Positions 42,907 through 58,951 of a stretch of DNA of 64,000 bases are shown piece by piece. The stretch is from Chloroflexota bacterium (GTDB lineage Bacteria > Chloroflexota > Anaerolineae > UBA1429): positions 8,083 to 72,082 of the forward strand of contig DAIPBO010000009.1 of assembly GCA_036774405.1 (NCBI GenBank), read 5' to 3'. Each line of letters opens with the position of its first letter. Positions within the stretch are counted from its first letter, which is position 1. Below the pieces are notes generated by a model. It was not told where the DNA came from and searched no databases. It worked only from the letters and a program-made list of their open reading frames with translations. A program made the position numbers and the translations under genes.

Positions 42907-42935
42907 TTGACACTCGAAAATCGTAGACCTATAAT
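42907..42935 (+). promoter_or_regulatory. Perfect consensus sigma-70 promoter (TTGACA-N17-TATAAT) upstream of the contractile injection system gene block.
   Basis: TTGACA at 42907-42912, 17-nt spacer, TATAAT at 42930-42935. Sits 53 nt upstream of the ATPase start. Confidence 0.6.
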
Positions 42936-42988: not shown

Positions 42989-45100
42989 ATGAGCCAAGCT
43001 GGACTGCAGTGCGACTCTGGGCTCGAGCTGCTACCGCTGCTTGAGCGTGTTGGGCGCGAGTTGCGAGAGCGGTCTCGTGCACTTGCCGCGCAACTGACCG
43101 AGCCCAACCTGCGCGGGCTGGTCATCGCAGATGACGAGTTCGACCAACTGCTCGGCCAGTCACTGGGCGCATCTCCCTTTGCCTGTCTGCAACCCTTGGA
43201 TAATGCCCTCCACGGGGGAGCCTGGGAGCAACTGCTGGTACGGGTTGGGCTCTCGCATCTCGAAGGTCTGATCATCCTCATCGCGCTGTTGCCCGAGATA
43301 GATCGTGCTTTCGAGCGCATCTTTGGCTACCTGCAAGATGACGTCACTGCGCGGCGCCCGACGGTCGATCTCATGCTACGCCTGCTGTGGGATGCGCCCA
43401 GAGACCGCCTGGCCGCCCGAAGCCTCTTCTGGCCGCAGTCGCCTCTGCGACGGCTGGGCCTCGTGATGCTCCGCTCTGAGGGAGAGCGTGATTGCGGCCT
43501 GCTTGCCCAACAAGTCCTGGTACATCCTATTGCCACCGAGCATCTGCTGCGGCAGGGCGACGCCCCTGAGCCCGTGCAGCACGCCGTACGCGTGCTGGCG
43601 GTCGGCTCGCTGCTCGTGGACGCAGCCAGCCAGCAGGCACACGGCATGCTGGCTTGGCTGAATGATCAGTCGCCCACACGTCTCTGGGTGCAGGCACAGG
43701 CCCCCTACACCGAACTTGTGCGCAACCTGGCTCAGGCAGCTTGCGATAGCTGGCAACTCTCACTCGTCGAGCTGGACCTGTCGCAGACTGGCGATATCGA
43801 AGACGCCACGCGGGCGGCTGCGCTTGAGGCGCTGCTGCGAGACGCCGCTCTGTTCATCAGTGGTCTTGGCGACGAACAGGCTCCCTCTGAGCAACGTCTG
43901 ATGGTCGAGCGCGCCGCTGCCCTATTGTGCGCCTTTCCGCGTCCCGTGTTCTGGCACTGTTCGCTGCTAGTGCCCCTGGCTGCGCCCCCTCATACACGCA
44001 GTGCGACCTGTGAGTTGCCCGCCCCTGATTATGCCCAACGTTTGGCGCTATGGCAGGCCGCCATAGCCCCGGGCACATGCTGTGAGGCTGCTGCGCTCGA
44101 GAAAGTGGCGGGGCGCTACCGTCTGGCGCCAGAGCGTATCGCCTGGTCAGCCCGTGTGGCAGTAGAGACGGCGGCCAGGCTCGCGCCGCAGGCGGCGGTG
44201 CGATTTGCGGACCTGGCCGATGGTGCCCTGCGTGCAAGCAGTCGGGATATCGGGCAGCTAGCGCACCGCATCGCGCCACGGCATGGTTGGCAAGACCTGG
44301 TGCTCCCGGCCGATCGACTGGCGCAGCTCAGGGAGATGTGCGATCAGCTTGCCTACCGGCACGTCGTGATGGAGCAGTGGGGCTATGGTCGACGTAGTGC
44401 CGCGCCCGGCCTGTCGGCGCTGTTCGCTGGTCCATCGGGGACGGGCAAATCGATGGCCGCTGAAGTGATCGCAGGCGAGTTAGGGCTCGATCTCTATCGC
44501 ATCGACCTTTCTGGCGTCGTGAGCAAGTACATTGGAGAGACCGAAAAGAACCTGGCGCGCATCTTTTCGCTGGCGCGAGACGCTAACGCGATCCTGCTAT
44601 TCGATGAGGCCGACGCCCTCTTTGGCAAGCGCTCTGAGACGCGTGATGCCCACGACCGTTACGCCAATATTGAGGTCAGTTATCTGCTCCAGAAGATCGA
44701 AGAGTACGATGGTCTGGTGATCCTCACCAGCAATCTACGGCAGAACCTCGACGAGGCCTTTATGCGGCGGCTGCAGCTCTCGGTCGATTTCCCGTTTCCT
44801 GATGAGCAGACGCGCTTGCAGATATGGCGCAGGCTCATCACGCCGCAGACGCCCGTAGGGGAGCTCGACCTGGAGCATCTCGCCCGACGCTTTCGGCTGT
44901 CGGGTGGCAGCATTCGTAATGTGGTGCTCACGGCGGCATTCCTGGCGGCCCGTGATGGCCAGCCGCTCAACACCGACTATGTGACCTGGGCTGTCCGCCG
45001 CGAGTATCAAAAGCTCGGTCGTTTGGTTGAGGCTGGGCAGTTCGCGACCGGAGAGCGTTTGGGCGCTCGTATCGAGATGCAAGGGTGGGGTGATGCCTGA
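42989..45100 (+). CDS. eCIS-associated AAA+ ATPase (Afp15/Pvc15-like), with a large non-ATPase N-region and a C-terminal AAA+ domain.
   Basis: Walker A GPSGTGKSMAAE, Walker B ILLFDEADALF, sensor/arginine finger ...TSNLRQNLDEAFMRR. This is the first gene of the tail-like cluster. Confidence 0.75.
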   Translation: MSQAGLQCDSGLELLPLLERVGRELRERSRALAAQLTEPNLRGLVIADDEFDQLLGQSLGASPFACLQPLDNALHGGAWEQLLVRVGLSHLEGLIILIALLPEIDRAFERIFGYLQDDVTARRPTVDLMLRLLWDAPRDRLAARSLFWPQSPLRRLGLVMLRSEGERDCGLLAQQVLVHPIATEHLLRQGDAPEPVQHAVRVLAVGSLLVDAASQQAHGMLAWLNDQSPTRLWVQAQAPYTELVRNLAQAACDSWQLSLVELDLSQTGDIEDATRAAALEALLRDAALFISGLGDEQAPSEQRLMVERAAALLCAFPRPVFWHCSLLVPLAAPPHTRSATCELPAPDYAQRLALWQAAIAPGTCCEAAALEKVAGRYRLAPERIAWSARVAVETAARLAPQAAVRFADLADGALRASSRDIGQLAHRIAPRHGWQDLVLPADRLAQLREMCDQLAYRHVVMEQWGYGRRSAAPGLSALFAGPSGTGKSMAAEVIAGELGLDLYRIDLSGVVSKYIGETEKNLARIFSLARDANAILLFDEADALFGKRSETRDAHDRYANIEVSYLLQKIEEYDGLVILTSNLRQNLDEAFMRRLQLSVDFPFPDEQTRLQIWRRLITPQTPVGELDLEHLARRFRLSGGSIRNVVLTAAFLAARDGQPLNTDYVTWAVRREYQKLGRLVEAGQFATGERLGARIEMQGWGDA

Positions 45101-46925
45101 GAAACGCTTTGATCGCGTGAGAGTGACTCCTCGCACAGAGACAGCGCGAAGGGGCGAGTCGCCCCGGCCAGATTCGCTGCGCGCGGACTCTCAGCGGGCA
45201 GGGAATAGGTGTCTGCGCGCCCTGCTGGCGAGCGGAATGCCCAGCGGCATCCTGCGATCGGGGCGTGGCGGAGCTTTTTCCGCGTCGCACAACGTAGAGA
45301 TGGCCCTTGAGCGACGCCGCGGTCTTGGCCAGCCCCTGCCGGAACCAACTCGCACCAAGATGGAGATGGCTTTTGGGGCTTCGTTCGAGGGCGTTACCGT
45401 TCACACCGGCGGCGAGGCGGATGGCCTCGCGCAGCAGGTGGCCGCGGTGGCGTTCACCCATGGCAAAGATCTGTACTTTTCTGCTGGGGCTTTCGCACCC
45501 GACACGCCACACGGTCAGCGTCTGTTGGCTCACGAGTTGACTCATGTGATACAGCAGCGCCCTGGTCGCAAGGTCATGGTTGGCGCGGCCAATGACCCTG
45601 CCGAGTTGGAGGCCGATGCGTTGGCAGACGCCGTCGTGCAGCGTCTGACCTTTGATAGAGCCAGGGGGCAGAACGAGGTTCAGCCCATTCAGCGGCAAGT
45701 AGAACTTGAGGAAGAGGAGCCCATCCAGGCACTGCGGCGCCAGGTTGAGCCCGAGGAAGAAGAGCCCATTCAGACGCTGCGCCGCCAGAGCGAGGATGAC
45801 GAGTTGGCGCAGCCGCTGCGCCGTTCGTCACCGGTCGAGCCTGTGTCGAGCGCGCCTGCCGTCACATCGCAAGGGCCCACGACGGCCGGCGAGGCCTCAA
45901 CCTATGCCCGAGCTATGCAAGCCTATCGGGCCGGCGAGTTGCGCAGCGCTCAGGACCTCTTTCAGCAGGTGCGCGACGATCCTCAGGTGAGCGACCGTGA
46001 ACGAGCCAGCGCTACCTGGAACGTTGGTCGCATTCATGAGGAGCTGGGCGACGAGGCCGCCGCGCTGGCATGTTATCGCGAGTATCTATCCATGCCCGGG
46101 GCCTCTGCTGACCGTCGTCCGGTGGCCGAACGCATTGTGGAGCGAATGGAGAGCGAGCAGCGGGAGGGCGCAGAGCCGGCCGCTGGCATGGGATCGACGG
46201 CAACGGCCGCTGCAGAGCCCGAGGCCGCCACTGCCGAGACGTCGGCGCCTCACCGTCCTCGCCCCGAGGCCGCCCCCGACCCAGCCTCACGAGCCAGGGC
46301 CGTCTATCGCGAGGGCGTTCGCGCCTATCGCGCGGGCGAGTTGCGTGGCGCTCTGGACCGATTCCAGCAGGTGCTCGAGATCGATCAGGCGCCTGCGAGC
46401 CACCGCGCTAGTGCCATCTGGAACATAGGCCGCATCTATCAGGGGATGGGCAATAGCAGGGCCGCTCTGGCCATGTACCGCGCCTATATCGCTCAGCCCG
46501 CCGTGCCCCCCGAGCGTCTCGAGGTGGCGCAGGGCATCATCGCAGACCTGGAGCGTGAAAGCAAAGCCGGCACTGCGGAACCTGAGGCTGGAGTAGGGGC
46601 TGGCCCCGACGACAAGGCGACGGCGCCCGAACGTCTGCCCACCGTTCCCGAGCAGCGAGCTCAGGCGCTCTATGGCCTGGCATCGCAGGCCTATCAGAAC
46701 GGCGACTATGCCACAGCACTCGAGCACCTGCAACAGCTCATGCGTACCGATGGGCTCGAGCAGCGGTTGTATACCGAGACGCTCTACAACATGGCGCAAT
46801 GTTATCGACGGCTTGGCAACAATGGCGCCGCCATAGACATGTATCGTGGTTTTATGGAGCAGCCCGATGCCGCACCCGAAGAGCGCGAGCGCGCACAGCA
46901 ACTGATCGCGACGCTGCGCCGCTAG
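45093..46925 (+). CDS. DUF4157 (HExxH metallopeptidase-like, eCIS-associated) domain protein with an acidic tandem repeat and three roughly 95-aa TPR-like repeats. Candidate effector/cargo or adaptor.
   Basis: AFGASFEGVTVHTGGEADGLAQQVAAVAFTHGKDLYFSAGAF...LLAHELTHVIQQR matches the DUF4157 core. Start ATG overlaps the ATPase stop (ATGCCTGA). Confidence 0.6.
   Translation: MPEKRFDRVRVTPRTETARRGESPRPDSLRADSQRAGNRCLRALLASGMPSGILRSGRGGAFSASHNVEMALERRRGLGQPLPEPTRTKMEMAFGASFEGVTVHTGGEADGLAQQVAAVAFTHGKDLYFSAGAFAPDTPHGQRLLAHELTHVIQQRPGRKVMVGAANDPAELEADALADAVVQRLTFDRARGQNEVQPIQRQVELEEEEPIQALRRQVEPEEEEPIQTLRRQSEDDELAQPLRRSSPVEPVSSAPAVTSQGPTTAGEASTYARAMQAYRAGELRSAQDLFQQVRDDPQVSDRERASATWNVGRIHEELGDEAAALACYREYLSMPGASADRRPVAERIVERMESEQREGAEPAAGMGSTATAAAEPEAATAETSAPHRPRPEAAPDPASRARAVYREGVRAYRAGELRGALDRFQQVLEIDQAPASHRASAIWNIGRIYQGMGNSRAALAMYRAYIAQPAVPPERLEVAQGIIADLERESKAGTAEPEAGVGAGPDDKATAPERLPTVPEQRAQALYGLASQAYQNGDYATALEHLQQLMRTDGLEQRLYTETLYNMAQCYRRLGNNGAAIDMYRGFMEQPDAAPEERERAQQLIATLRR
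45681..45824 (+). repeat. Imperfect 45-nt tandem repeat encoding (V)E(P)EEEEPIQxLRRQ acidic repeats inside the DUF4157 gene.
   Basis: ...QPIQRQ / VELEEEEPIQALRRQ / VEPEEEEPIQTLRRQ / SEDDELAQPLRR. Confidence 0.5.
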
Positions 46926-46931
46926 GGAGCC

Positions 46932-47777
46932 GTGATGATTCACTTGCTTGATGATGCCATCCGTAAACTGATCCAGACTGAGACGGGCTATGCCGCGCCC
47001 GATGTTGAGGTCAGCTTCAGCCAGCCTACGGGCGATTGGGCAGCTGGCCTGACGCATCCGGTGATCAACTGTTATCTATATGATGTTCGTGAGAATAACG
47101 AACTGCGCTCGGCCGAGTGGACCGTCGACCGCGGCCCCAACGGGTATGCGGCCAAGCGAATGGCTCCGCTGCGCTTTGACGTCAGCTATCTCATCACAGT
47201 GTGGACGCAAGACCATATCGACGACGAGCATGCCATGCTCTGGCGCGTGCTCGAGTCCTTGGCGACGCACGAGACGCTCCCAGACCAGTACTGTGATGAG
47301 GCCCTGAAAAGCCAGCCCTATCCACTGCGCTGCAAGACGGCGCAGGCGACGCGTGCCATCGATGATCTACCCGATTTGTGGAGTGTGATGGACAACCCTT
47401 TGCGTCCATCGATCAACTATGTGGTCACCATGGCAATGGAGCGCATGGAGCCGATCCACAGTCGTCAGGTGGTTACCAAACAGATCGACGTGGTGCAACG
47501 TGGGGTGATCGAAACTCAGGCCGAGACGATCCTGCAGATCGGAGGCATCGTCCACAACGGTGGGCGAACGCCTGCCCCAGTTGCGGGCGCCAGCGTCACT
47601 CTGGTCGAAACGGCCCAGCAGACCTTGACTGATCGGCTGGGGCGCTATCGCTTTCGCAACGTGCCGCGCGGTCGCTATCGGCTGGTGGCAGCCCACGAGG
47701 GCATGCATGGTGAGCGCGAGATCATCGTACCTCTACGTTCGGGCGATACCGACCTGTATGACATCGGTGTGCACTGA
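46932..47777 (+). CDS. eCIS cap/tail-terminator protein (Afp16/Pvc16-like, DUF4255) with a C-terminal carboxypeptidase-regulatory-like beta-sandwich.
   Basis: N-terminus MIHLLDDAIRKLIQTETGY...PVINCYLYDVRENNELRS is the typical DUF4255 start. C-terminal GASVTLVE...GRYRFRNVPRGRYRLVA. Confidence 0.65.
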   Translation: MMIHLLDDAIRKLIQTETGYAAPDVEVSFSQPTGDWAAGLTHPVINCYLYDVRENNELRSAEWTVDRGPNGYAAKRMAPLRFDVSYLITVWTQDHIDDEHAMLWRVLESLATHETLPDQYCDEALKSQPYPLRCKTAQATRAIDDLPDLWSVMDNPLRPSINYVVTMAMERMEPIHSRQVVTKQIDVVQRGVIETQAETILQIGGIVHNGGRTPAPVAGASVTLVETAQQTLTDRLGRYRFRNVPRGRYRLVAAHEGMHGEREIIVPLRSGDTDLYDIGVH

Positions 47778-47855
47778 TGCCGAAAGGAGGCACAGCTTTA
47801 TTCTGACATTGTGGCAGGCACCCTGGCTCTGAGGTTGTGAAAAGGACGAGCGAAC

Positions 47856-49418
47856 ATGCCAATCTATCAGTCTCCGGGCGTTTACATCGAAGAGGTCGAC
47901 CGTGGCACACGGCCCATTGAGGCGGTGGGCACCGCAGTTGCGGCCTTTGTCGGCTTTAGCGCCAAGGCCGAGATGCCAGGCGGCGTCAATGAACCGGTGT
48001 CGCTTTTGGGCAAAGCTGTTGCGGTGACCAACTGGTCGCAGTATGTAGAGAGGTATGGCGGCTTTCTCGATGGGGCATACCTGCCCTATGCCGTGTACGG
48101 CTACTTTTTGAACGGTGGCAGTCGCTGCTATGTCGTCAGCGTCAAGACATTGGGAGCTTCGACAGATCCGAGCCTGGCCAGCCCCGCCATGGTGGCGCTG
48201 CCAAGCGGCGGTGAAAAGCCGGCCGATACCCTACAGATCACGTCACGCTCGGGTGGCCCCGCCGGCAATGATATTCAGGTGGCAGTGCGTCCGCTCGAGG
48301 AGGATCGCTTTACGCTGGTCATCAGCGGGCCCGATGGCGCCAGCGAGACCTTCGAGGGCCTGACTCTCGCCAAAGACGAGCGTAACGTCGAGGTGGTGGT
48401 CAACGCCCAGTCTCGACTGGTCAAAGTGGCGGTGCTTAAGGCGGCTGGCAGTTTGGTCGAGCGCAAGCCCCAAGAGGGCACCTACACGCTGACCGGCGGC
48501 GCTATGCAGACCAAGGCCGTTACTGCGGCCGACTATCGCGGGCAGGTGGCGGAGCGCACGGGGATCGGCGGCCTCGAGGCGGTGGAAGAGATCACCATGC
48601 TGGCTGCACCAGATCTCATGGCCAGCTATCAGGCCGGTGAGATGTCGTTGGGCGACGTGCAGGCGGTGCAGCAGGCAATGTACGAGCACTGCGAACGTGT
48701 CAAGTACGCTTTTGCCATCCTCGATTGCCCACCCGATCTGGGGCCTCAGGCCATGCGCGATTGGCGCCTCACAGCCAACTACGACACCAAGTACGCCGCG
48801 CTCTACTATCCCTGGATCGAGACGGGCGACATGGTACGTGGCAAGGGCGTTGTGCGCGTTCCGCCTTCGGGCCACATCGCTGGCGTCTATGCGCGTAGCG
48901 ACGCCGAGCGGGGCGTACACAAGGCTCCAGCCAACGAGGTGGTGCGCGGTGCTACGGGGCTGCCCATCCAGATCACTCGCGCCGAACAGGATAGCCTCAA
49001 CCCGATCGGCATCAACTGCATCCGATCCTTCCCAGGGCGTGGCCTGCGCGTTTGGGGCGCTCGCACCCTCAGCAGTGATCCTGCCTGGCGCTACATCAAC
49101 GTGCGCCGGCTGTTCAACATGGTTGAAGAGTCGATCGAGCGGGGGACACAGTGGGTCGTGTTTGAGCCGAACGACGCCGACCTGTGGGCACGGGTGCGCC
49201 GCGATGTGCGCGCCTTTCTCAAGACCGTGTGGTCGTCGGGGGCGCTGTTCGGGGCTTCGCCCGACGAAGCCTTTTACGTCAAGTGTGATGAGGAACTCAA
49301 CCCACCCGAAGTGCGCGATCTGGGCCAGCTGATCATCGAGATCGGCATTGCGCCAGTCAAGCCGGCTGAGTTTGTCATCTTCCGTATCAGCCAGTGGGCC
49401 GGGCCATCGGCCGAGTAG
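47856..49418 (+). CDS. Contractile tail sheath protein (Afp2/3/4, phage sheath family).
   Basis: MPIYQSPGVYIEEVDRGTRPIEAVGTAVAAFVG N-terminus. Conserved C-terminal sheath domain (AALYYPW...GHIAGVYARSD...APANE). Size 520 aa. Confidence 0.85.
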   Translation: MPIYQSPGVYIEEVDRGTRPIEAVGTAVAAFVGFSAKAEMPGGVNEPVSLLGKAVAVTNWSQYVERYGGFLDGAYLPYAVYGYFLNGGSRCYVVSVKTLGASTDPSLASPAMVALPSGGEKPADTLQITSRSGGPAGNDIQVAVRPLEEDRFTLVISGPDGASETFEGLTLAKDERNVEVVVNAQSRLVKVAVLKAAGSLVERKPQEGTYTLTGGAMQTKAVTAADYRGQVAERTGIGGLEAVEEITMLAAPDLMASYQAGEMSLGDVQAVQQAMYEHCERVKYAFAILDCPPDLGPQAMRDWRLTANYDTKYAALYYPWIETGDMVRGKGVVRVPPSGHIAGVYARSDAERGVHKAPANEVVRGATGLPIQITRAEQDSLNPIGINCIRSFPGRGLRVWGARTLSSDPAWRYINVRRLFNMVEESIERGTQWVVFEPNDADLWARVRRDVRAFLKTVWSSGALFGASPDEAFYVKCDEELNPPEVRDLGQLIIEIGIAPVKPAEFVIFRISQWAGPSAE

Positions 49419-49461
49419 CTGACTCGTGGCGCATGAGCGCGGCGATTGAGGAGGAACACAG

Positions 49462-49905
49462 ATGGGTGAGCGTCAGGACCCATTGGTTGGTTTTCACTAT
49501 GCCATTGACGTGCAAGGCAAGATCCGCGGTTACTTTACCGAGTGTAGCGGCATCGGCTCAGAGCACGAAGTCATCGAACACAAAGTCGTCGACGAAAAGG
49601 GCCGCGAGGTCATCATGAAGCTCCCTGGACGCCTCAAGTGGGAGAACATCACTCTCAAGCGGGGCATCACCAACAATATGGACATCTGGGATTGGCGCGA
49701 CGAGGTTGTCCGCGGCAAGGTGGATGATGCGCGACGCAACGGCTCGATTATCATGTTCGATCAATCGCTCAAAGAGGTCGCGCGCTGGAACTTTGAGCGA
49801 GCGTGGCCGGTCAAGGTTAGCGGACCGGCGGTCAAGGCTGACAGCAACGAGTTTGCGATCGAGGAACTGGTGATCACGCACGAGTATCTGTATCGCGCGC
49901 CTTAA
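49462..49905 (+). CDS. Inner tube protein (Afp1/Pvc1-like, T4 gp19 fold).
   Basis: PLVGFHYAIDVQG...GYFTECSGIGSE...KWENITLKRGIT pattern of eCIS/T6SS Hcp-like tube proteins. Size 147 aa. Confidence 0.8.
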   Translation: MGERQDPLVGFHYAIDVQGKIRGYFTECSGIGSEHEVIEHKVVDEKGREVIMKLPGRLKWENITLKRGITNNMDIWDWRDEVVRGKVDDARRNGSIIMFDQSLKEVARWNFERAWPVKVSGPAVKADSNEFAIEELVITHEYLYRAP

Positions 49906-49921
49906 GGCTGGCGGCTGAACC

Positions 49922-50281
49922 ATGCAGACCGAATTCACGTTCCGCCTGCCCTTGGGCTATCAGGACGGCGCTGGCCAGGTGCACCGAGAGGGCTCGATGC
50001 GCCTGGCGACGGCCATAGATGAGATCGCGCCGCTTGGCGACGCGCGCGTGCGCGCAAACGAAGCCTATCTCTCCGTGCTGTTGCTCGCGCGGGTGGTCAC
50101 ACGGCTGGGATCTCTTCCGACGGTGACCACCGAGGTCATCGAGGGGTTGTTCTCGGCCGACGTGGCCTTTTTGCAGGCGCTCTATCGGCAGATCAACCTG
50201 ACCGGCGGTTCCGTGGTCGAGGCCGTTTGCCCGCACTGCGGCCAGACGTTTGAGGCGCTGCTCGCCTCGTCCGAACCATGA
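49922..50281 (+). CDS. Small conserved hypothetical protein between the two tube genes (possible assembly chaperone). C-terminal CxxC.
   Basis: 119-aa ORF with an ATG 16 nt after the tube stop. No recognisable family. VCPHCGQTFEAL at the C-terminus. Confidence 0.4.
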   Translation: MQTEFTFRLPLGYQDGAGQVHREGSMRLATAIDEIAPLGDARVRANEAYLSVLLLARVVTRLGSLPTVTTEVIEGLFSADVAFLQALYRQINLTGGSVVEAVCPHCGQTFEALLASSEP

Positions 50282-50322
50282 TCAGGTGACATGAGATCAT
50301 GTGCTGTGAGTAGGATGGGCTG

Positions 50323-50751
50323 ATGGAAGTCGAGGCGTATCCGGCCTTTCGGTTTGCCGTGCAGATCGAGGGCGTCACTGAGGCCATGTTCACCGAATGC
50401 ACCTTGCCGTCCCTCGAGGTAGACGTGCGCGAGCAACTCGAGGGCGGCTATAACGATGGCACGCATCTCTTGCCAGGGCGGGTCAAGCGCGGCACCGTGG
50501 CTCTCAAGCGTGGCGTGGCCCGGCAGAGCGCGCTGCTGCGCTGGTACAACGAAGTGATGCAGGGGCAGATCGCCAAGAGCCGTCGGCAGGTATCGGTGCT
50601 CTTGCTCGACTCGCTTGGCGAGACGGTGCTGCGATGGGATTTCGTCGGAGCCTATCCAACCAAGTGGTCGGGTCCTACACTCAACAGTGGCAGCAAAGAG
50701 CTGGCCGTCGAGACGCTCGAACTGGGCTTTGAGAATGTGACGGTGGGGTGA
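50323..50751 (+). CDS. Second tube paralog (Afp5/Pvc5-like).
   Basis: FRFAVQIEG...FTECTLPSLEVDV...GRVKRGTVALKRGV. Size 142 aa. Confidence 0.8.
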   Translation: MEVEAYPAFRFAVQIEGVTEAMFTECTLPSLEVDVREQLEGGYNDGTHLLPGRVKRGTVALKRGVARQSALLRWYNEVMQGQIAKSRRQVSVLLLDSLGETVLRWDFVGAYPTKWSGPTLNSGSKELAVETLELGFENVTVG

Positions 50752-52793
50752 CTGTGACCGAGCGAACGGCAAAGGTAGACGTGGTAAGCGACCTGGCTCA
50801 CGAGGTGGCCGGTCGGTATGCGCCAGCGAGGCTGCTTGTGGGGCTGGGCTCGACGGGCCCAGTGCGCCTACGGCCGCAGGTGACGCTGCGCCTGAGCGAG
50901 CCGGCACCTCCGGCGATTCCTGGCGAGGCGCAAGAGTCGCCCGTAGCCACAGAGTCCCTGACGACACCAGATAGGTCGGCGGTCGCTCCACCCGAGGTAT
51001 CTACAGCCAGCCAAGGGCGTGCCTGGTATGAGCGGCCGTGGCCGTTCACGGTGGAGCAGGTACAGGCCGCCCTCGAGCAGCCGAAAGTATCCTCACCTGA
51101 GGCCATCGCGGCGTCGCAGATTGTGGCTGAGCCGACGCAATCGGCCGCTGAACAACCATCGCATTCAGGCCCAGCGCCAGATCGCGAGCTGCTGCCTGGC
51201 GCCGCAGAGTCGGCCCCACAACAGGGGGTACCCCCTCGCCGTCGACGCGCACAGGTCGACGAATTGTCTGCGACAGTCACCGCAGTTGCCGAGGATACCC
51301 CGTCTCATAGAGCGCCTCGCGCTGAGTCAGGCCGTATAGACGATGAGATGGTTGCCCCTGCCAGTACGGCCGAGCGGGGGCCGGTCGCCGACGCACACAG
51401 ACCAGCCACTGAGGCCACGCGGCCCGCAGCAGCAATCGCGCGTCGCCAGCGAGTCGATAGCGCGCGACCAGATGCACCTGCTGATGTGATGCCGCCGCGA
51501 GCAGCAGCGCCCGCGCCAGCCAGCCAGGCCCCGAACAAAGACGCGATCGACGCGACTGAAGACAGTGCCATGCAAGTACCCGAACCTCTCGCCCGGCCGG
51601 CGAGAGCCTCGGAGCCAGTCGCGCCGCCGATTGTCTCCAACGCATCCTCTGCTGATGCTGTGGTCGCGCAGAACATGCCCCTCATCGACCTATCCATCGC
51701 CCCCCCGCGTGTCGGGGGTGAATATGATGCTGGGCCGCGCCCAACTGGTGGCGACATAGAGACACGGCCAGCCGCGGAGTCACTGTCCGAGCCCGGTCGC
51801 GCTCTAGCCTCGCCGCAGCCCACAACCATGGTCCGCCCAAGGGCGCCGCTGCTACCATCAACGACAGCTGAACCGCGCAGCAGCGAGGTGGCCCTGACCT
51901 TAGCGGCCGTGCCGCCCGTCGGCGAGCCGCCAACCTCCTTTCTGCCTCCCACAGCGGCGGCAGACGCTACCAGTAGATCGGTGCCCGCGGCTGTGAACGG
52001 TCCATTGCCCCTGCAGCGCAGGGCCGTGCAGCGTAGCGATGTCGCACAGCCTCTGGATCAAGCCGAAAGCCTGCCGGAGCGTCATTCTCAGGCTGAAAGG
52101 CCCACAGAACCTCTGGACAGACCACCCGCAGGGCCACCTGTGTACGACCTCAGCGCGCGGTACGAGGCGGCCCTGGACGCCTATCGTGCTGTGCGCTCAG
52201 GCCAGACAGAGCCGTCCATCGAGGCCGCCTCAGCGTCGCCGGCCATAGCCTCTGAGAACTCAGGTGGCTCGATGGTGCAGCGAGTGTCTCTCCGGTCAGA
52301 GGATGCCGCTTCCGCCTCGCTGCTCGAGCCCTCGGCTCATACCGAGCCGGAGACTCTGGGTACCGCCATCCCGACCTTGTCTCTGGTGCGACCTCTCGCG
52401 CGGGCTGGCGCTGCGGTTGAGCAGGCCCCATCGCCGCAGATGGCGCCAGCAGAAGGCGACCGCAGCGTGCAGCTACAGCGTGTGCAGCAGCCTGTCGCGC
52501 TCGAGCAGGCGCATGTTGGGGCCAGAGTGATCTCGACGCCGCCGATGGTCAGCGAACCGTCGAGGAGCAAGCACGCCGCACCTGAGGCATCTGCCGGTGG
52601 CGATGTGGTTCTGCAGCGCGCAACGGTCACGGCCCCAGAGGGACAGGGCGAAGCGAACACGTCTGGCGCGCAGGCTGGGCCTCCTCCAGCGGCCGAGGTC
52701 AATATCGACCGCCTTGCAGAGGAGGTTATGCAGCGTCTGCGCCGTCGTCTACAGATCGAGGCCGATCGCCTCGGCCGGCCAGGTTGGCGCTAG
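50748..52793 (+). CDS. Large Pro/Ala/Ser-rich low-complexity protein in the tape-measure position (candidate tail-length determinator analog, or a disordered substrate/scaffold). GTG start.
   Basis: 681 aa with extreme P/A/S/E bias and a short helical C-terminus (EVNIDRLAEEVMQRLRRRLQIEADRL). Lies between the tube and the LysM/tube-initiator gene. Confidence 0.35.
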   Translation: MTVTERTAKVDVVSDLAHEVAGRYAPARLLVGLGSTGPVRLRPQVTLRLSEPAPPAIPGEAQESPVATESLTTPDRSAVAPPEVSTASQGRAWYERPWPFTVEQVQAALEQPKVSSPEAIAASQIVAEPTQSAAEQPSHSGPAPDRELLPGAAESAPQQGVPPRRRRAQVDELSATVTAVAEDTPSHRAPRAESGRIDDEMVAPASTAERGPVADAHRPATEATRPAAAIARRQRVDSARPDAPADVMPPRAAAPAPASQAPNKDAIDATEDSAMQVPEPLARPARASEPVAPPIVSNASSADAVVAQNMPLIDLSIAPPRVGGEYDAGPRPTGGDIETRPAAESLSEPGRALASPQPTTMVRPRAPLLPSTTAEPRSSEVALTLAAVPPVGEPPTSFLPPTAAADATSRSVPAAVNGPLPLQRRAVQRSDVAQPLDQAESLPERHSQAERPTEPLDRPPAGPPVYDLSARYEAALDAYRAVRSGQTEPSIEAASASPAIASENSGGSMVQRVSLRSEDAASASLLEPSAHTEPETLGTAIPTLSLVRPLARAGAAVEQAPSPQMAPAEGDRSVQLQRVQQPVALEQAHVGARVISTPPMVSEPSRSKHAAPEASAGGDVVLQRATVTAPEGQGEANTSGAQAGPPPAAEVNIDRLAEEVMQRLRRRLQIEADRLGRPGWR

Positions 52794-52806
52794 GAGGGAT
52801 GCAGAG

Positions 52807-53466
52807 ATGCCTACCACTCGCGGCGGCCTCGAGCCCGCTACCATTACCAACAAGACCACGGGCGAAATCACGGCGTGCATGTTCAATCCGTTTGAGTACA
52901 CGATCAGCAAGCAGAATCAGTACGAGAACGCCGAGACCAAAGGGCGGAACATTCCTCGTGTACGCTTTCGGCAGGGTGGCGCCCAGACGCTGGGGCTCAG
53001 GCTGCTGTTCGACACCTATGCCGAGGCCAGCGATGTGCGGGCCGTCACGGGTACGCTATGGCGCATGATGATGATCGATGAGGATCAGGCTGATAGCCGT
53101 ACCGGCAAAGGAGAGCCGCCACACTGTGTCTTTCGGTGGGGCAGGTTCGAATTCGAGGCCGTGATCACCCGCGTGACAGAGAAGATGACTCTCTTCTTGC
53201 GTGACGGTACGCCGGTGCGCAGCGAGGTTGACATTGCCCTGCAGCAAGTGATCGATGAGGAAGAGCATGCCGCAACCAACCCCACATCGGGTGGTGGTGC
53301 CGCCTATAGGACACGCCTGGTACTGGCCGGCGATCGCCTCGACCTGATCGCCTTTGACGTGTATGGCGATGCCACCCGCTGGCGTCTGTTGGCCGAGGCC
53401 AACGCCATCACCGATCCGCTACGCCTGCGGCCTGGGCAGGTTCTCCTAATCCCACCGTTGGTGTGA
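52807..53466 (+). CDS. LysM-domain tail protein (Afp7/P2 gpX-like tube initiator/baseplate hub component).
   Basis: C-terminal LysM YRTRLVLAGDRLDLIAFDVYGDATRWRLLAEANAITDP...LRPGQVLLIP. GGAGGG RBS. The ORF-track start (52597) lies inside the previous gene. Confidence 0.6.
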   Translation: MPTTRGGLEPATITNKTTGEITACMFNPFEYTISKQNQYENAETKGRNIPRVRFRQGGAQTLGLRLLFDTYAEASDVRAVTGTLWRMMMIDEDQADSRTGKGEPPHCVFRWGRFEFEAVITRVTEKMTLFLRDGTPVRSEVDIALQQVIDEEEHAATNPTSGGGAAYRTRLVLAGDRLDLIAFDVYGDATRWRLLAEANAITDPLRLRPGQVLLIPPLV

Positions 53467-53470
53467 GACG

Positions 53471-55174: not shown

Positions 55175-55177
55175 GAG

Positions 55178-55585
55178 TTGATGATGGCGGCGGTGCCGGC
55201 GGCCAAGCAGGGCGATTTGGTGCAGGCGATGGACACCCACATCGTGATGGTGCCCACGCCCGGTGGATCTGTACCCACGCCCATGCCCGGGCACCCTTTC
55301 GCGGGCACCATCGATGGTGGGTTGAGCAGTAATGTCACCATCATGGGGCGACCCGCTGCCACCATGAACAGTACTGCTACCAACCAGCCCCCACATATAC
55401 CCATCGGCGGGCCATCTTTTCAGGTGCCGCCCAGTAATCGTGCCACCATTGTGCAAGGAAGCGCCACAGTCTTGATCAACGGACTGCCAGCGGCGCGTAA
55501 CGGTGATATGGCGCTCACTTGCGATGACGCCGCACCAGCTCCGCACGGTCAGGTGATTGCCACAGGTACCGTCTTGATTGGCTGA
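55178..55585 (+). CDS. PAAR-domain spike tip protein (Afp10-like).
   Basis: Three PAAR-like beta-strand repeats. Ends GDMALTCDDAAPAPHGQVIATGTVLIG. Size 135 aa. Confidence 0.65.
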   Translation: MMMAAVPAAKQGDLVQAMDTHIVMVPTPGGSVPTPMPGHPFAGTIDGGLSSNVTIMGRPAATMNSTATNQPPHIPIGGPSFQVPPSNRATIVQGSATVLINGLPAARNGDMALTCDDAAPAPHGQVIATGTVLIG

Positions 55586-55599
55586 AAGGCAGGAGACCA

Positions 55600-55995
55600 T
55601 TGGCGGGCGATATCATTGGACGTGGTTGGACATTTCCGCCTCGACTCGATGAGCGTGGTCAGGTCGCCATGGTCGGTGGCGAGGTCGAGATCGAACAGGC
55701 AGTAAGGATCATTCTAGGCACCTCACCGGGCCAGCGGGTCATGCGACCCGAGTTCGGCTGTCGGCTTCAAGAACTCGTTTTTGCGCCCAACAACAGCCGC
55801 ACCGCTGGCCTCGCCGAGCGCTATGTACGCGAGGCGCTAGGGCGCTGGGAGCCGCGCATTCGAGTGACCGCGGTGAGCGTGAGCACTGACAATCAGCATG
55901 AGGGGCAGTTGTCTATCGGCGTCGAGTATCTCATCAAGGCAACTCACTCGAGCCGTTCCTTGGTCTACCCATTCTACCTGATTCCAGAGGAGTAA
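55600..55995 (+). CDS. Baseplate wedge protein gp25/GPW-like (Afp9).
   Basis: GDIIGRGWTFP...EQAVRIILGTSPGQRVMRPEFGCRLQELVF is the conserved GPW_gp25 motif. Size 131 aa. Confidence 0.8.
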   Translation: MAGDIIGRGWTFPPRLDERGQVAMVGGEVEIEQAVRIILGTSPGQRVMRPEFGCRLQELVFAPNNSRTAGLAERYVREALGRWEPRIRVTAVSVSTDNQHEGQLSIGVEYLIKATHSSRSLVYPFYLIPEE

Positions 55996-56001
55996 AGCAG
56001 C

Positions 56002-57987
56002 ATGCCGCTGCCCAGCCAGCCCCTAGATGATCGCTCGTTTCAGGACCTGGTTGACGAGGCCAAGAAGCGCATCCCGCTCTATTGCCCCGAGTGGACTGAT
56101 CACAATGTGAGTGACCCCGGGGTGACACTGATTGAGCTGTTTGCCTGGATGATGGACATGCTCCTATTTCGCCTCAATCAGGTGCCACGCAAGCACTATG
56201 TCAAGCTGCTCGAGTTGCTTGGCATCCAGCTTCAGCCACCAAGGGCCGCTATGGCACCGTTGGTATTCTATCTATCGACGCCACAGGCACAACCGGTGCA
56301 GGTGGCTCGTGGCACCGCGGCGAGCACGAAGCGTTCAGGCGGTGAGGAGGCGATCGTCTTTACCACCGAGAAGGACCTTACGATCCAGCCGGCCCAGCTA
56401 GAGCATCTAGTGGCACGCCGACGTCTCGGCGATCAGGGCATGGTATTCCAGGATATCGGCCTGCAAAGGCTCGAGCGCGACTTTCGTCCGTTCTCTGCCA
56501 CCGATCCGCATCAGGGCGAGGCACTCTACTTTGGTTTGGGCGGCGAGTTGCATCGACACGTGCTCGGGCTCGAGCTCGACTGTGTGCGCGCAGGTGGGCT
56601 GAACATCATCCCAGAAAACCCACCTCTGGTGTGGCAGGCTTGGAGCGAGGGGGGCTGGAGCGATGTTGATGTGGAGCAGGATACCACCGGCGGCCTAAGC
56701 TGGACTGGGCAGGTGCGGATTCATCTGCCCCAGATGGCCCGCAGCGACGTCAACGGTGTTGAGGCGTACTGGGTGCGCTGCCAGGTGATCGCCGCAGAGC
56801 AGGGGCGGCGTGCCTATGCGACCTCGCCGATCATCCGCAATGTGCGGGCTCTGACCTGGGGTGCCACTGTCGATGCCATGCATGCCACCGAGGTACAGGC
56901 CGAGCCGTTGGGGCGCAGTGATGGGTCGCCCGGGCAGGTGTTCAGTCTCGAACACGCGCCAGTTCTGCCGCGCATGAAAGAGGAGTGCGTCGTGATCTGG
57001 CAACCCGGGCTCGACAGCGGGGAGGAATGGCACGAGGTGGAGAGTTTCGCCGAGACCTCGGCCGAGGATCGGTGCTACACACTCGACAGCGCCACCGGTG
57101 AAGTAACCTTTGGCCCTGCCATCCGCCAGCGCGATGGGTCGGTGCGTAGCTACGGGGCCATACCCCCGCGCGGCGCCGAGCTGCGCATGACGCGCTATCG
57201 CTATGGCGGTGGCACTCGTGGCAATGTCCGTGCAGGGGCGGTCACCGAGCTGCGCACTGCCATACCCTACGTCGCACGCGTGACGAATCGCCTGCCGGCC
57301 AGCGGCGGGTGGGACCCCGAGGATCTAGAGGCAGCGATGTTCCGTGCCCGCCATGAGTTGCGGACACGCTATCGGGCGGTAGCTCCTGACGATTTCGAGT
57401 TCTTGGTGCTGCAGGGCTTTCAGGGCCGCATCGCCCGTGCGCGCTGTCTGCAGGCAGCCCAGATGGGGCGTGGCGCACCCTCGCCAGGGCAGGTCTATGT
57501 GGTGGTCGTTCCCCAGCTGTCACCTGACGAGGCTCGGCGCTACATCCCCCCCTCGCGGCTCGCCCTGACGCCCGAGTTGCAGCAAGAGGTCACAGCTTTC
57601 CTGGATGAGCGCCGTCTCTTGACGACGCAGCTGGCCGTGCGTGAGGCGGGCTACAAGCGCATTGCTGTACAGGTGGCGGTCGTAGCCAGGCCAGGCACCG
57701 ACGCCCACCGGTTAAGGACTGATGTGCACCAAGCGCTCGACCTTTTCCTGAATCCTCTCGTGGGGGGATTGGATGGCACCGGCTGGCCCTTTGGGCGTGA
57801 GGTCTATCTGTCTGACCTGTACACGTGTATTCAGCAGGTCGACGGGTTGCTCAACGTACAGACACTGCAGATGGCCTGGCTTGATGAGACCGACCAGCCG
57901 CACCTGGGCGAGCGCAAAATCGACTTGTTGGCGCATGAGGTGGCGATCTCAGACATCCACGTCGTCACTGTTGAGGCGGGAGAGTGA
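56002..57987 (+). CDS. Baseplate J-like protein (Afp11, T4 gp6-like).
   Basis: 661 aa. N-terminal FQDLVDEAKKRIPLYCPEWTDHNVSDPGVTLIELFAWM is typical of baseplate J. Confidence 0.8.
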   Translation: MPLPSQPLDDRSFQDLVDEAKKRIPLYCPEWTDHNVSDPGVTLIELFAWMMDMLLFRLNQVPRKHYVKLLELLGIQLQPPRAAMAPLVFYLSTPQAQPVQVARGTAASTKRSGGEEAIVFTTEKDLTIQPAQLEHLVARRRLGDQGMVFQDIGLQRLERDFRPFSATDPHQGEALYFGLGGELHRHVLGLELDCVRAGGLNIIPENPPLVWQAWSEGGWSDVDVEQDTTGGLSWTGQVRIHLPQMARSDVNGVEAYWVRCQVIAAEQGRRAYATSPIIRNVRALTWGATVDAMHATEVQAEPLGRSDGSPGQVFSLEHAPVLPRMKEECVVIWQPGLDSGEEWHEVESFAETSAEDRCYTLDSATGEVTFGPAIRQRDGSVRSYGAIPPRGAELRMTRYRYGGGTRGNVRAGAVTELRTAIPYVARVTNRLPASGGWDPEDLEAAMFRARHELRTRYRAVAPDDFEFLVLQGFQGRIARARCLQAAQMGRGAPSPGQVYVVVVPQLSPDEARRYIPPSRLALTPELQQEVTAFLDERRLLTTQLAVREAGYKRIAVQVAVVARPGTDAHRLRTDVHQALDLFLNPLVGGLDGTGWPFGREVYLSDLYTCIQQVDGLLNVQTLQMAWLDETDQPHLGERKIDLLAHEVAISDIHVVTVEAGE

Positions 57988-57990
57988 GCG

Positions 57991-58941
57991 ATGGCTGATG
58001 CCCTGGGCGCACGATTGATCATCCGTATGCCCGATGGCCCCGACGTAGTTTTTGCACTTGCTCAGCCGGTGGTGCGCATCGGCCGTAACCCTGCGCCACA
58101 GAACGACCTGGTGCTACCACATAGCGCTGTGTCGCGCTATCACGCTCGCATCTACTGCGATCGCTTGCCCTATCGCGTGCAAGATGTGGGCAGCAGCAAC
58201 GGCACCGCCCTGAACGACGCGCCGGTGGCCCCTAATGAGATGTGGCCCCTGACTGACGGCGATATCATTGGCATCGGGCCCTTTCGGCTGACCTATGTGG
58301 CACCCCGCGAGTCGGATCAGGCTTTGGCCATCGAGCCTCCTGTGGCGAGGGCTGAGGCAGAGATCGCCGCAGGTGGGCAGGCAATGCCCGGCACACCAGG
58401 TGGCGCAGAGCCGCCCATCCCCCCCTCTCAAGGGCAGCGTGTATTGTCAGAGCCGCCGCCATGGTTAGGCATGCCCACCGACGCCAGTCGGTGGTTGCAG
58501 CACCTGCCGCCACTCTACGCCGAGGAAGGATTCCTGGGGCGGTATCTCCTGCTGTTCGAAGATTTGCTGGGGCCAGCCGAACAGGCGATTGCGCATTTCG
58601 ACCTGTTCCTTGACCCCGAGACCTGCCCCGATGATATGGTGCCGTTGTTGGCGCAGTGGCTTGGCGTTGAGGTTGCCGAGCGCTGGCCACTGGCCGTCAA
58701 GCGGCAGCTCGTAAAGCATGGCGCCTGGCTGCATCGAGCCCGTGGTACGCTGCCTGGCCTAAAGCGTCACCTCGAGATCTGCACGGGCGGTGCGGCCGAG
58801 ATCAGCGAGAACGACGAGCGCCCTCACACCATCGTCGTTCGCATCGCTGCCCCTCAAGAGACGATCGATCGGCCGCTGCTCTCTGAGGTGATCCGCTATC
58901 ACTGCCCTGCTCACGTGGGCTTTGCCTTACGGATAGACTGA
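57991..58941 (+). CDS. FHA domain fused to a P2 gpI-like baseplate protein (Afp12-like).
   Basis: N-terminal FHA (VVRIGRNPAPQNDLVLPHSAVSRYHARIY...VQDVGSSNGTALND). C-terminal LDPETCPDDMVPLLAQWLGVEV...KRQLVKHGAWLHRARGT matches the tail protein I family. Confidence 0.7.
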   Translation: MADALGARLIIRMPDGPDVVFALAQPVVRIGRNPAPQNDLVLPHSAVSRYHARIYCDRLPYRVQDVGSSNGTALNDAPVAPNEMWPLTDGDIIGIGPFRLTYVAPRESDQALAIEPPVARAEAEIAAGGQAMPGTPGGAEPPIPPSQGQRVLSEPPPWLGMPTDASRWLQHLPPLYAEEGFLGRYLLLFEDLLGPAEQAIAHFDLFLDPETCPDDMVPLLAQWLGVEVAERWPLAVKRQLVKHGAWLHRARGTLPGLKRHLEICTGGAAEISENDERPHTIVVRIAAPQETIDRPLLSEVIRYHCPAHVGFALRID

Positions 58942-58951
58942 CGACGGCCCT

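Follow-up and report, generated by a model that had tools for sequence, protein, structure and literature searches.

The stretch of DNA analyzed here (hereafter the window, 64 kb in length) comes from an Anaerolineae genome of the phylum Chloroflexota, and the cluster under study occupies positions 42989-62050 of its plus strand. It consists of 15 closely packed open reading frames (ORFs), with spacing that ranges from a 4-nt overlap to 78 nt, and encodes a contractile injection system (CIS) of the family known as extracellular CIS (eCIS). Its two last genes are the main subject of this report: the baseplate protein Cis12 (gpI) is fused to a phosphothreonine-binding type of FHA domain, and the gene directly after it encodes a membrane Ser/Thr kinase that carries a second FHA domain. 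Domain identities were assigned by a Pfam scan with curated cut-offs (E-values follow the family names), and the features are as follows.

42907..42935, plus strand: putative promoter, TTGACA-17 nt-TATAAT, 12/12 match to the sigma-70 consensus
42989..45100, plus strand: AAA+ ATPase (Cis15/Afp15 equivalent) with winged-helix domain; AAA 1.1e-25, WHD 2.5e-23
45027..46925, plus strand: eCIS_core/DUF4157 protein with C-terminal TPR repeats; eCIS_core 2.2e-29, TPR_12 1.1e-15
46932..47777, plus strand: cap/tail terminator (Cis16), Pvc16_N plus C-terminal CarboxypepD_reg beta-sandwich; Pfam 1.6e-31
47856..49418, plus strand: single sheath (Cis2); Pfam, and full-length match to Streptomyces CIS sheath chains 8bky/9gtp, E=4.1e-161
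49462..49905, plus strand: inner tube (Cis1a); Phage_T4_gp19 2.5e-37
49922..50281, plus strand: 119-aa protein with C-terminal CPHCG motif; conserved, with homologues at the same position
50323..50751, plus strand: second tube paralogue (tube initiator, Cis1b equivalent); Phage_T4_gp19 2.7e-37
50748..52793, plus strand: disordered Pro/Ala/Ser/Glu-rich protein of 651-681 aa; from sequence
52807..53466, plus strand: CIS_tube/LysM protein (Cis7, tube-to-spike adaptor); CIS_tube 1.7e-25, start from the gene call of the related locus L001
53471..55174, plus strand: VgrG-like spike (Cis8), one contiguous 567-aa ORF; Phage_base_V 1.6e-29, Phage_GPD 7e-8
55178..55585, plus strand: PAAR spike tip (Cis10); PAAR_motif 1.7e-17
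55600..55995, plus strand: gp25-like sheath initiator (Cis9); GPW_gp25 6.3e-27
56002..57987, plus strand: baseplate wedge J (Cis11), single copy; Baseplate_J 1.2e-11
57991..58941, plus strand: FHA-Cis12 fusion (gpI); FHA 3.7e-18, Tail_P2_I 8.8e-16
58952..62050, plus strand: single-pass membrane Ser/Thr kinase, alternative start 58973; Pfam and sequence

A sequence-only reading of the cluster, made earlier without database searches, had listed the penultimate gene as a plain gpI, thereby overlooking its FHA domain. The Pfam matches cover amino acids (aa) 28-96 (FHA) and 197-301 (Tail_P2_I), and the overall layout is an FHA domain at approximately aa 8-105 (58012-58305), a disordered linker at approximately aa 106-165, some 55 residues in length, and a Cis12 core at aa 166-316. 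When the protein was searched against the PDB, its N-terminal half retrieved the FHA proteins GarA and OdhI, and its C-terminal half retrieved Cis12 of the Streptomyces system CIS-Sc (9gtp_E, 7e-11); the Cis12 of S. coelicolor is a 190-aa protein without FHA. An AlphaFold (AF2) model, built on a 25-sequence alignment, predicted the FHA domain with high confidence (pLDDT >93), followed by the linker (approximately aa 109-160 in the model, pLDDT <50) and the Cis12 core, and a Foldseek search of this model again returned GarA/OdhI, at 35-37% identity, and the 9gtp baseplate. The residues that bind phosphothreonine in FHA domains, namely Gly31-Arg32, Ser48-x-x-His51 and Asn70-Gly71 (GR, SxxH and NG), were invariant or nearly so in 25 homologues, and were at least 90% conserved in both FHA families, i.e., that of Cis12 and that of the kinase. 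If the stoichiometry matches that of CIS-Sc, about six FHA domains would be displayed per baseplate.

The fusion is not peculiar to this genome. A protein search retrieved 104 FHA-Cis12 clusters, nearly all of the same two-domain architecture, and the named ones all came from Chloroflexota metagenome-assembled genomes (MAGs), except for the weakest, a Planctomycetota match to FHA only. A genome scan with the single FHA-gpI protein as query gave no match; with an alignment as query, it yielded 80 loci, nearly all from Chloroflexota, the best of them being in an Anaerolineae MAG (73% identity, on a 3.3 Mb contig).

The kinase gene starts 10 nt after cis12. Its kinase domain (aa 20-282; 59009-59797; Pkinase 3.8e-44) has the GxGxxG, VAIK, HRD, DFG and APE motifs all present, as in active Hanks-type kinases, and the catalytic Lys, HRD, DFG and APE were at least 90% conserved in 45 aligned homologues, collected by a protein search with the full-length kinase. 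The FHA domain of this protein lies at aa 369-432 (60056-60247), and the linker between it and the kinase domain contains a conserved SLxT (Ser-Leu-x-Thr) motif, which is a candidate phospho-acceptor. It is followed by approximately 220 residues without a Pfam match, which correspond to two immunoglobulin (Ig)-like domains (aa ~468-684; 60353-61003): the AF2 model of aa 455-740 (pLDDT 93) consists of two Ig-like beta-sandwiches and then a long helix, and the closest folds are the ASH/MSP/PapD-like Ig domains. A single, strongly hydrophobic transmembrane (TM) helix occupies aa 685-703 (61004-61060), and nearly all homologues likewise have a hydrophobic helix after the Ig module. The C-terminus comprises TSP3 calcium-binding repeats (61283-61345), a Pro/Thr linker and a PLAT domain (61553-61729). 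Kinase and FHA domains require a cytosolic environment, and the protein has no signal peptide; its N-terminus is therefore placed inside and its C-terminus outside. The C-termini of homologues bear wall-binding domains (PG_binding_1, SH3_3), in agreement with the topology predicted from the sequence, that of a single-pass membrane protein, and the outer TSP3/PLAT region is probably a variable domain that senses or binds the cell envelope. The sequence-only reading had allowed that this region could be a fibre-like adhesin delivered with the particle. Since it is extracytoplasmic, beyond the conserved TM helix of an integral membrane protein of the producer, it is unlikely to be the fibre of a free particle, and this candidate was rejected on topology.

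The Ig-TM module connects the kinase to a protein family already known from the Streptomyces system. For this comparison, proteins of S. clavuligerus, Kitasatospora (both annotated) and S. cattleya plasmid pSCATT (subtype IId according to Vladimirov et al.) stood in for the Sco4256 family, and comparison with Sco4256 was by position and description. In the S. clavuligerus cluster, the counterpart of the module is a 559-aa protein, aligned over residues 4-242 (hhalign probability 99.7%, E=4.7e-27, 236 columns); this protein consists of an Ig module, a TM helix and PG_binding_1, and is encoded between the ATPase and the sheath, a position that agrees with the locus-tag order of sco4256-4258. A hidden Markov model (HMM) of the module matched the proteins of S. 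clavuligerus (1e-51), pSCATT (2e-39) and Kitasatospora (4e-31). The S. clavuligerus protein agrees with what has been published on Sco4256-4258, which have a conserved N-terminal domain like that of pilus chaperones, one TM helix and a variable, lectin-like C-terminus (PMC10020575; PMC10066040), and Sco4256 co-purifies with CIS particles (Vladimirov 2023, PMC10020575). The same authors list Sco4256 homologues of Roseiflexus (Chloroflexi), with no kinase or FHA fusion described (PMC10020575). In Streptomyces-type loci, the Sco4256-like gene is without kinase or FHA, and its place in or near the cluster is a different one: S. clavuligerus has it between ATPase and sheath on the opposite strand, pSCATT upstream of the cap, and Kitasatospora downstream of the CisA-like gene, on the same strand. 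We also considered the kinase as a homologue of CisA (Sco4242), but BLASTP found nothing significant in the CisA-position proteins of S. clavuligerus and Kitasatospora; these bear Zn-ribbon and F5/8-type C domains, and share with the kinase only the position and the bitopic topology.

To examine how regularly the two genes occur together, ORFs were called in all related loci, which had all been collected via one Cis12 peptide motif, and were searched with the window proteins and the HMM of the Ig-TM module. Counts were restricted to loci with at least 4 kb of sequence downstream of cis12, and a kinase was counted if it was on the same strand and within 3 kb. Among the 43 Chloroflexota loci with FHA on Cis12, 33 had a kinase-FHA-Ig-TM gene, six had a kinase-less (FHA)n-Ig-TM gene, none had Ig-TM without FHA, and four had none of these. 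The 16 Chloroflexota loci without FHA on Cis12, mostly from Dehalococcoidia, had no kinase at all; 14 encoded a kinase-less FHA-Ig-TM protein and two an Ig-TM protein without FHA, so that none was devoid of the module. For the association of kinase with FHA-on-Cis12, the Fisher test, in which kinship among the loci was ignored, gave p=5e-8. Moreover, at least 20 kinase and FHA-Cis12 matches fell on contigs of identical size, and both families recur, the FHA-Cis12 proteins in approximately 100 clusters and the kinases in more than 120. Thus, an FHA-bearing Ig-TM membrane protein beside cis12 is a phylum-wide feature of Chloroflexota, within which, judging from the sequences, one large clade gained the kinase on the Ig-TM protein and the FHA on Cis12. 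The kinase is a conserved part of the CIS, and its family is strongly, though not exclusively, CIS-linked. The sequence-only reading had treated it as a neighbour beyond the end of the cluster; since it belongs to the system, the cluster extends to 62050.

Several variations on this arrangement were seen among the related loci. The FHA-Ig-Ig-TM gene of the 14 loci without Cis12 FHA (within the set L059-L084) is convergent to cis12, encodes approximately 480-690 aa with no kinase domain, and mostly ends 3-30 bp from cis12 (e.g., L076:10520-12010, minus strand). Tandem kinase-FHA-Ig-TM paralogues follow cis12 in L013 (at -73 and +3105 relative to cis12) and on a 46571-bp contig (P0140, P0164), whereas an extra eCIS_core (DUF4157) protein after cis12 either replaces or precedes the kinase gene in L018 (10983-14441) and L039 (10945-12045). 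In one context, the baseplate genes ahead of the kinase include FHA and Tail_P2_I as two separate ORFs. In L088 (10001-17452), a kinase of the same type lies upstream of the cluster and is followed by a BTAD/Trans_reg_C regulator, ATPase, cap and sheath, a layout that hints that some members of the family act on transcription, and in L086 the same kinase architecture has no CIS genes within 10 kb.

The kind of machine to which these two proteins belong was determined from best matches and gene content. The sheath, tube, VgrG spike, gp25 and Baseplate_J markers of eCIS were all found above their Pfam cut-offs, along with the AAA+ ATPase and Pvc16_N tail terminator, markers that set eCIS apart from phage tails (Vladimirov 2023, PMC10020575), and the DUF4157/eCIS_core protein, itself an eCIS marker (Geller 2021). 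A prophage or tailocin was therefore rejected on the strength of the ATPase, Pvc16 and DUF4157 markers and the housekeeping flanks; no capsid, portal or terminase gene was found beside the cluster in the window scan. The top PDB relatives of the sheath, Cis11, cap and Cis12 core were the Streptomyces CIS structures (8bky/8bl4/9gtp/9gts), with far weaker matches to the antifeeding prophage (AFP), the Photorhabdus virulence cassette (PVC), AlgoCIS and the thylakoid-anchored CIS (tCIS). The cap had 9gts_0A as its top match (E=1.7e-23), residues 1-624 of Cis11 matched CIS-Sc Cis11 (9gtp_1K, E=2.5e-146), and the sheath was 48-54% identical to sheaths on megaplasmids of Streptomyces, Kitasatospora and Deinococcus. 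Judged from these matches and the gene content, on which the subtype assignment rests, the locus is a CIS of the Streptomyces CIS-Sc type, i.e., eCIS subtype IId, in an Anaerolineae genome.

The gene order is ATPase, DUF4157-TPR protein, cap, sheath, tube, 119-aa protein, tube, disordered 681-aa protein, LysM-tube, spike, PAAR, gp25, J, I and kinase. The gene identities named in the sequence-only reading hold with Pfam, the 119-aa and 681-aa proteins being without a Pfam match, and its observations of an ATPase-first and cap-first order, of a single sheath gene, and of no fibre gene between gpI and the kinase were all reproduced, the last because only 10 nt separate the two ORFs. Its description of this order as non-canonical was not upheld. 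According to Chen 2019 (PMC6899500), afp13 is missing from most IIc and IId loci and afp14 from lineage II, and IId has one afp11, one contiguous afp8 and PAAR; the window likewise has one Baseplate_J ORF, one VgrG ORF and one PAAR ORF, and no match to the Afp13 fibre or Afp14 tape-measure families was found in the cluster or the scanned window ORFs. The order in S. clavuligerus and pSCATT is cap, ATPase, sheath, tube, small unknown protein, tube, LysM, VgrG, gp25, J, I and membrane protein, from which the window differs only in the internal order of ATPase and cap and in the inserted DUF4157-TPR gene; the Kitasatospora locus has the same order only from a divergent cap onward, with no ATPase found there. 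Since the three actinobacterial IId-type loci compared here are likewise cap/ATPase-first, this arrangement is the norm of the subtype, and both the gene order and the missing fibre are already accounted for by published IId traits. By contrast, AFP and PVC (lineage I) share with the window the tube, sheath, LysM-tube, VgrG, PAAR, gp25, J, I, ATPase, Pvc16-type cap and DUF4157-type protein, but have three sheath paralogues, the Afp13 fibre, the Afp14 tape measure, and the ATPase and cap at the 3' end, and their particles are released to target eukaryotic cells. With one sheath, no fibre, and the ATPase and cap at the 5' end, the window falls outside lineage I.

CIS-Sc resembles the window in its one sheath, two tubes, small unknown protein, one contiguous VgrG and one Cis11, in having neither an Afp13 fibre nor an Afp14 homologue, in the placement of ATPase and cap ahead of the sheath, in the bitopic membrane protein directly after cis12, and in the presence of a Sco4256-type Ig-TM protein. 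The differences are also clear: the Streptomyces Cis12 proteins are 183-222 aa and without FHA, the CisA-position protein of Streptomyces-type loci is a Zn-ribbon/TM/carbohydrate-binding protein where the window has the kinase, and the window also encodes PAAR, as well as a DUF4157-TPR protein placed between ATPase and cap. Anaerolineae are filamentous bacteria, as are Streptomyces. CIS-Sc is cytoplasmic and fibre-less, is not released intact and mediates stress-induced cell death (PMC10066040; PMC10020575; 10.1101/2024.06.25.600559), and it needs the bitopic membrane protein CisA, which is predicted to bind the baseplate and whose gene directly follows cis12 (10.1101/2024.06.25.600559). The sequence-only reading had argued from the lack of a fibre to an intracellular or membrane-anchored mode of action. 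No fibre-like or collagen-like gene was found among the Pfam-scanned ORFs (nearly all those of at least 200 aa) in the window, and the closest relative is itself cytoplasmic and fibre-less; an intracellular or membrane mode is therefore the likeliest reading.

The remaining genes of the cluster can be described briefly. The promoter-like site lies 54 nt upstream of the ATPase gene and is the sole perfect match in the 20 kb scanned, in a genome of 62% GC. The AAA module of the ATPase shows likeness to Cdc48/p97 D1. In the DUF4157 protein, the HExxH motif reads HELTH in the translation, and the probable start of its gene is the ATG at 45093. The CarboxypepD_reg extension of the cap comprises aa 203-277; the 225-aa CIS-Sc cap aligns over residues 1-169 only, and the same extension is seen in the Chloroflexota relatives L004 and L088. 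The 119-aa protein was without a Pfam or PDB match, although its homologues occupy the equivalent position in loci of Chloroflexota and of the Streptomyces type (E 1e-35 to 1e-46). In many loci, a gene for a DUF6760 protein of about 55 aa follows it with a 4-nt overlap (L003:2207-2371; L090:16627-16785); this gene is absent in the window, where only 41 nt separate the 119-aa gene from the second tube gene. The LysM match on Cis7 was weak (0.0014) and under the Pfam cut-off.

The 681-aa protein had been labelled, with a question mark, as a ruler. It is indeed present at that position, is disordered and has no Pfam match or detectable family. In 30 related loci, a protein of 611-1473 aa occupies the same position (e.g., L003:2802-4790, L039:667-5001), conserved only at a basic N-terminus and in a C-terminal helix motif, LAxxVxxxLxxRLxxExxR (in fuller form LAxxVYxxhxxRLxhExER). 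The protein is possibly a ruler (tape measure) or lumen protein, perhaps the one missed in lineage II, which is said to be without Afp14.

On the flanks, nearly all window ORFs of at least 200 aa were scanned against Pfam; those with a match were all housekeeping genes, and a few had no match. A DHDPS-family gene lies directly upstream of the cluster and LarC/LarB/LarE genes lie directly downstream, all on the minus strand. There are no tRNA genes in the window, and no LuxR or BTAD regulator was found among the scanned ORFs. A MoxR-type AAA_3 ATPase with DUF58 and DUF4129 proteins forms one group at 9412-13017 (minus strand), and a 711-aa VIT+VWA protein is encoded 16 kb away at 29413-31548 (plus strand), neither being visibly related to the CIS.

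From the gene content, homologies, domain architectures, conserved residues and gene neighbourhood described above, we infer a cytoplasmic CIS in which docking or firing is gated by contacts between phosphothreonine and FHA, analogous to regulation in type VI secretion systems (T6SS), a reading towards which we lean, if only slightly. The machine would be assembled and used inside the producer, at the cytoplasmic membrane, with no release of free particles. An envelope signal would activate the kinase via its variable outer domain, phosphothreonines would form, either on a CIS protein or in the kinase linker, where SLxT is the candidate site, and would be bound by the FHA domains. This binding would then dock the baseplate to the membrane protein or license firing. 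In such a scheme, the Ig module, from a particle-associated family, and the FHA domains would serve as contacts, the kinase as the switch and the outer domain as the input.

Two known systems offer partial precedents. The T6SS threonine phosphorylation pathway (PpkA/TagE, Fha1/TagH, PppA/TagG; PMC13584744) resembles the window in having a membrane Ser/Thr kinase with an extracytoplasmic domain and an FHA protein in a contractile-machine cluster; there, the kinase and FHA pair gates assembly or firing via phosphothreonine on Fha or, in Agrobacterium, on TssL, at the junction of membrane and baseplate (PMC13584744). However, the T6SS FHA is a separate scaffold protein, whereas in the window it is fused to the baseplate wedge protein and to the kinase. 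None of the T6SS core proteins TssB/C, TssJLM and TssK was found in the cluster; the sheath is of the Phage_sheath_1 type, and the sole T6SS match was a sub-threshold TssF on J. The window may act as a functional analogue of this pathway but does not belong to its family; it is a different CIS lineage in a Chloroflexota host. The tCIS of Anabaena (Weiss 2022, PMC8894136) is like the window in its extra Cis12 domain and in a membrane-spanning protein encoded beside the baseplate genes; it is intracellular and anchored in the thylakoid membrane of a filamentous host, and its extra Cis12 domain forms a wide connector to the membrane (PMC8894136). It differs in its fibre-like Cis13 with a TM helix, its Cis19 crown and Cis11 cage, a Cis12 extension that is not FHA, and the lack of a kinase, and its sheath is distant from that of the window (E=1.3e-55, C-terminal part only).

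A number of points weigh against a phosphorylation-gated cytoplasmic machine. The cytoplasmic location is extrapolated from Streptomyces, the Chloroflexota CIS being known here from genes alone. No PP2C phosphatase of the PppA/TagG type was found in the scanned window ORFs or in four annotated related contexts, so that a reversible switch is unproven. FHA is present on both partners, and the phospho-acceptor is a candidate only. The loci that were counted for co-occurrence share ancestry, in addition to their collection through a single motif. The kinase architecture found away from CIS genes (L086), or upstream beside the BTAD regulator (L088), would fit a transcriptional role. The fibre search covered the window, and a fibre gene elsewhere in the genome is possible. 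Lastly, the Streptomyces homologue of the Ig-TM module is assigned to the Sco4256 family by position and architecture, and Casu et al. (PMC10066040) read Sco4256-4258 as effectors loaded into the lumen, not as anchors.

This last point leads to the explanation that the kinase-FHA-Ig-TM protein is a cargo or effector, carried on or in the particle and delivered into a membrane upon firing, that its kinase is the toxic or manipulative activity, and that the FHA of Cis12 merely loads or retains it. The homology of the Ig-TM module to Sco4256-like proteins speaks for it, since Sco4256 co-purifies with the particles and deletion of sco4256-4258 leaves the tube lumen empty and has the same phenotype as loss of the CIS (Casu 2023, PMC10066040); in addition, effector genes are frequent at the 3' end of eCIS operons in an eCIS survey, and the cluster has no obvious toxin other than the DUF4157-TPR protein. 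Nonetheless, at 900-2600 aa and with a folded kinase, FHA and TM helix, such proteins are poorly suited to a tube lumen, and their C-terminal wall-binding domains imply insertion in the producer's own membrane. Furthermore, the kinase-less versions retain FHA, which suggests use in signalling or as an adaptor rather than as a toxic payload, and the gain of FHA on Cis12 tracks the gain of the kinase. Altogether, we consider delivery as cargo unlikely.

It is also conceivable that the system is an ordinary released eCIS, with a receptor binder that is encoded elsewhere or unrecognisable, and that the kinase regulates only expression or assembly, e.g., through a BTAD/SARP-type regulator, with no contact to the particle. 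BTAD and kinase-linked regulators are known neighbours of eCIS, and the layout of L088, the occurrence of the same kinase architecture away from CIS genes, and a fibre search that spanned the window and not the rest of the genome all agree with such a role. What makes it quite unlikely in our estimate is that FHA is fused to the structural protein Cis12 itself throughout the protein clusters counted above, that the Ig-TM module belongs to a particle-associated family, that no regulator gene was found among the scanned ORFs in or beside the window cluster, and that intact particles of the closest characterised relative are not released. The FHA domains might, alternatively, act as phosphorylation-independent adaptors, as in YscD of the type III secretion system, and simply fasten the baseplate onto the membrane protein, with the kinase as a later add-on that has a cellular role of its own. 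Both FHA domains do match the Yop-YscD_cpl Pfam model, 14 of the 16 loci that have no kinase still encode the FHA-Ig-TM protein beside cis12, and no phosphatase was found in the scanned ORFs. Against this stand the conservation of the phosphothreonine-binding residues in both FHA families, the identity of the nearest structures, which are phosphothreonine-dependent FHA regulators, and the intact and conserved catalytic motifs of the kinase; purely structural adaptors are thus very unlikely.

With regard to novelty, we found no literature in which FHA or Ser/Thr kinases are connected with eCIS or with systems of the CIS-Sc type, the papers retrieved being on T6SS only, and the large eCIS surveys are silent on FHA. 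Two fusions appear to be new against the searchable literature: that of FHA to Cis12, and that of kinase and FHA to a membrane protein of the Sco4256 type at the position of the fibre gene. Both recur across Chloroflexota. In its full form, the proposal is that Chloroflexota have wired a eukaryotic-type Ser/Thr kinase and FHA phospho-switch into the baseplate of a cytoplasmic CIS, such that a receptor-like kinase senses the envelope or neighbouring cells with its variable outer domain and docks and fires the machine via phosphothreonine-FHA binding to Cis12, which we offer tentatively, as a possibility that falls short of an even chance. The domain architecture described here, with a phosphothreonine reader on the baseplate and a kinase on a CIS-associated membrane protein, may hold an answer to how cytoplasmic, fibre-less CIS reach the membrane and fire; in Streptomyces, the adaptor CisA is required, and its contact with the particle is a prediction. 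The hosts of this coupling are abundant, uncultured, filamentous Chloroflexota of sludge, sediments and soils. If the proposal is true, it would provide the first molecular trigger for the CIS-Sc class and a switch that converged with the T6SS threonine phosphorylation pathway, would carry phospho-regulation to contractile machines other than the Gram-negative T6SS, and would place regulated cell death or cell-cell interaction in filamentous bacteria under its control.

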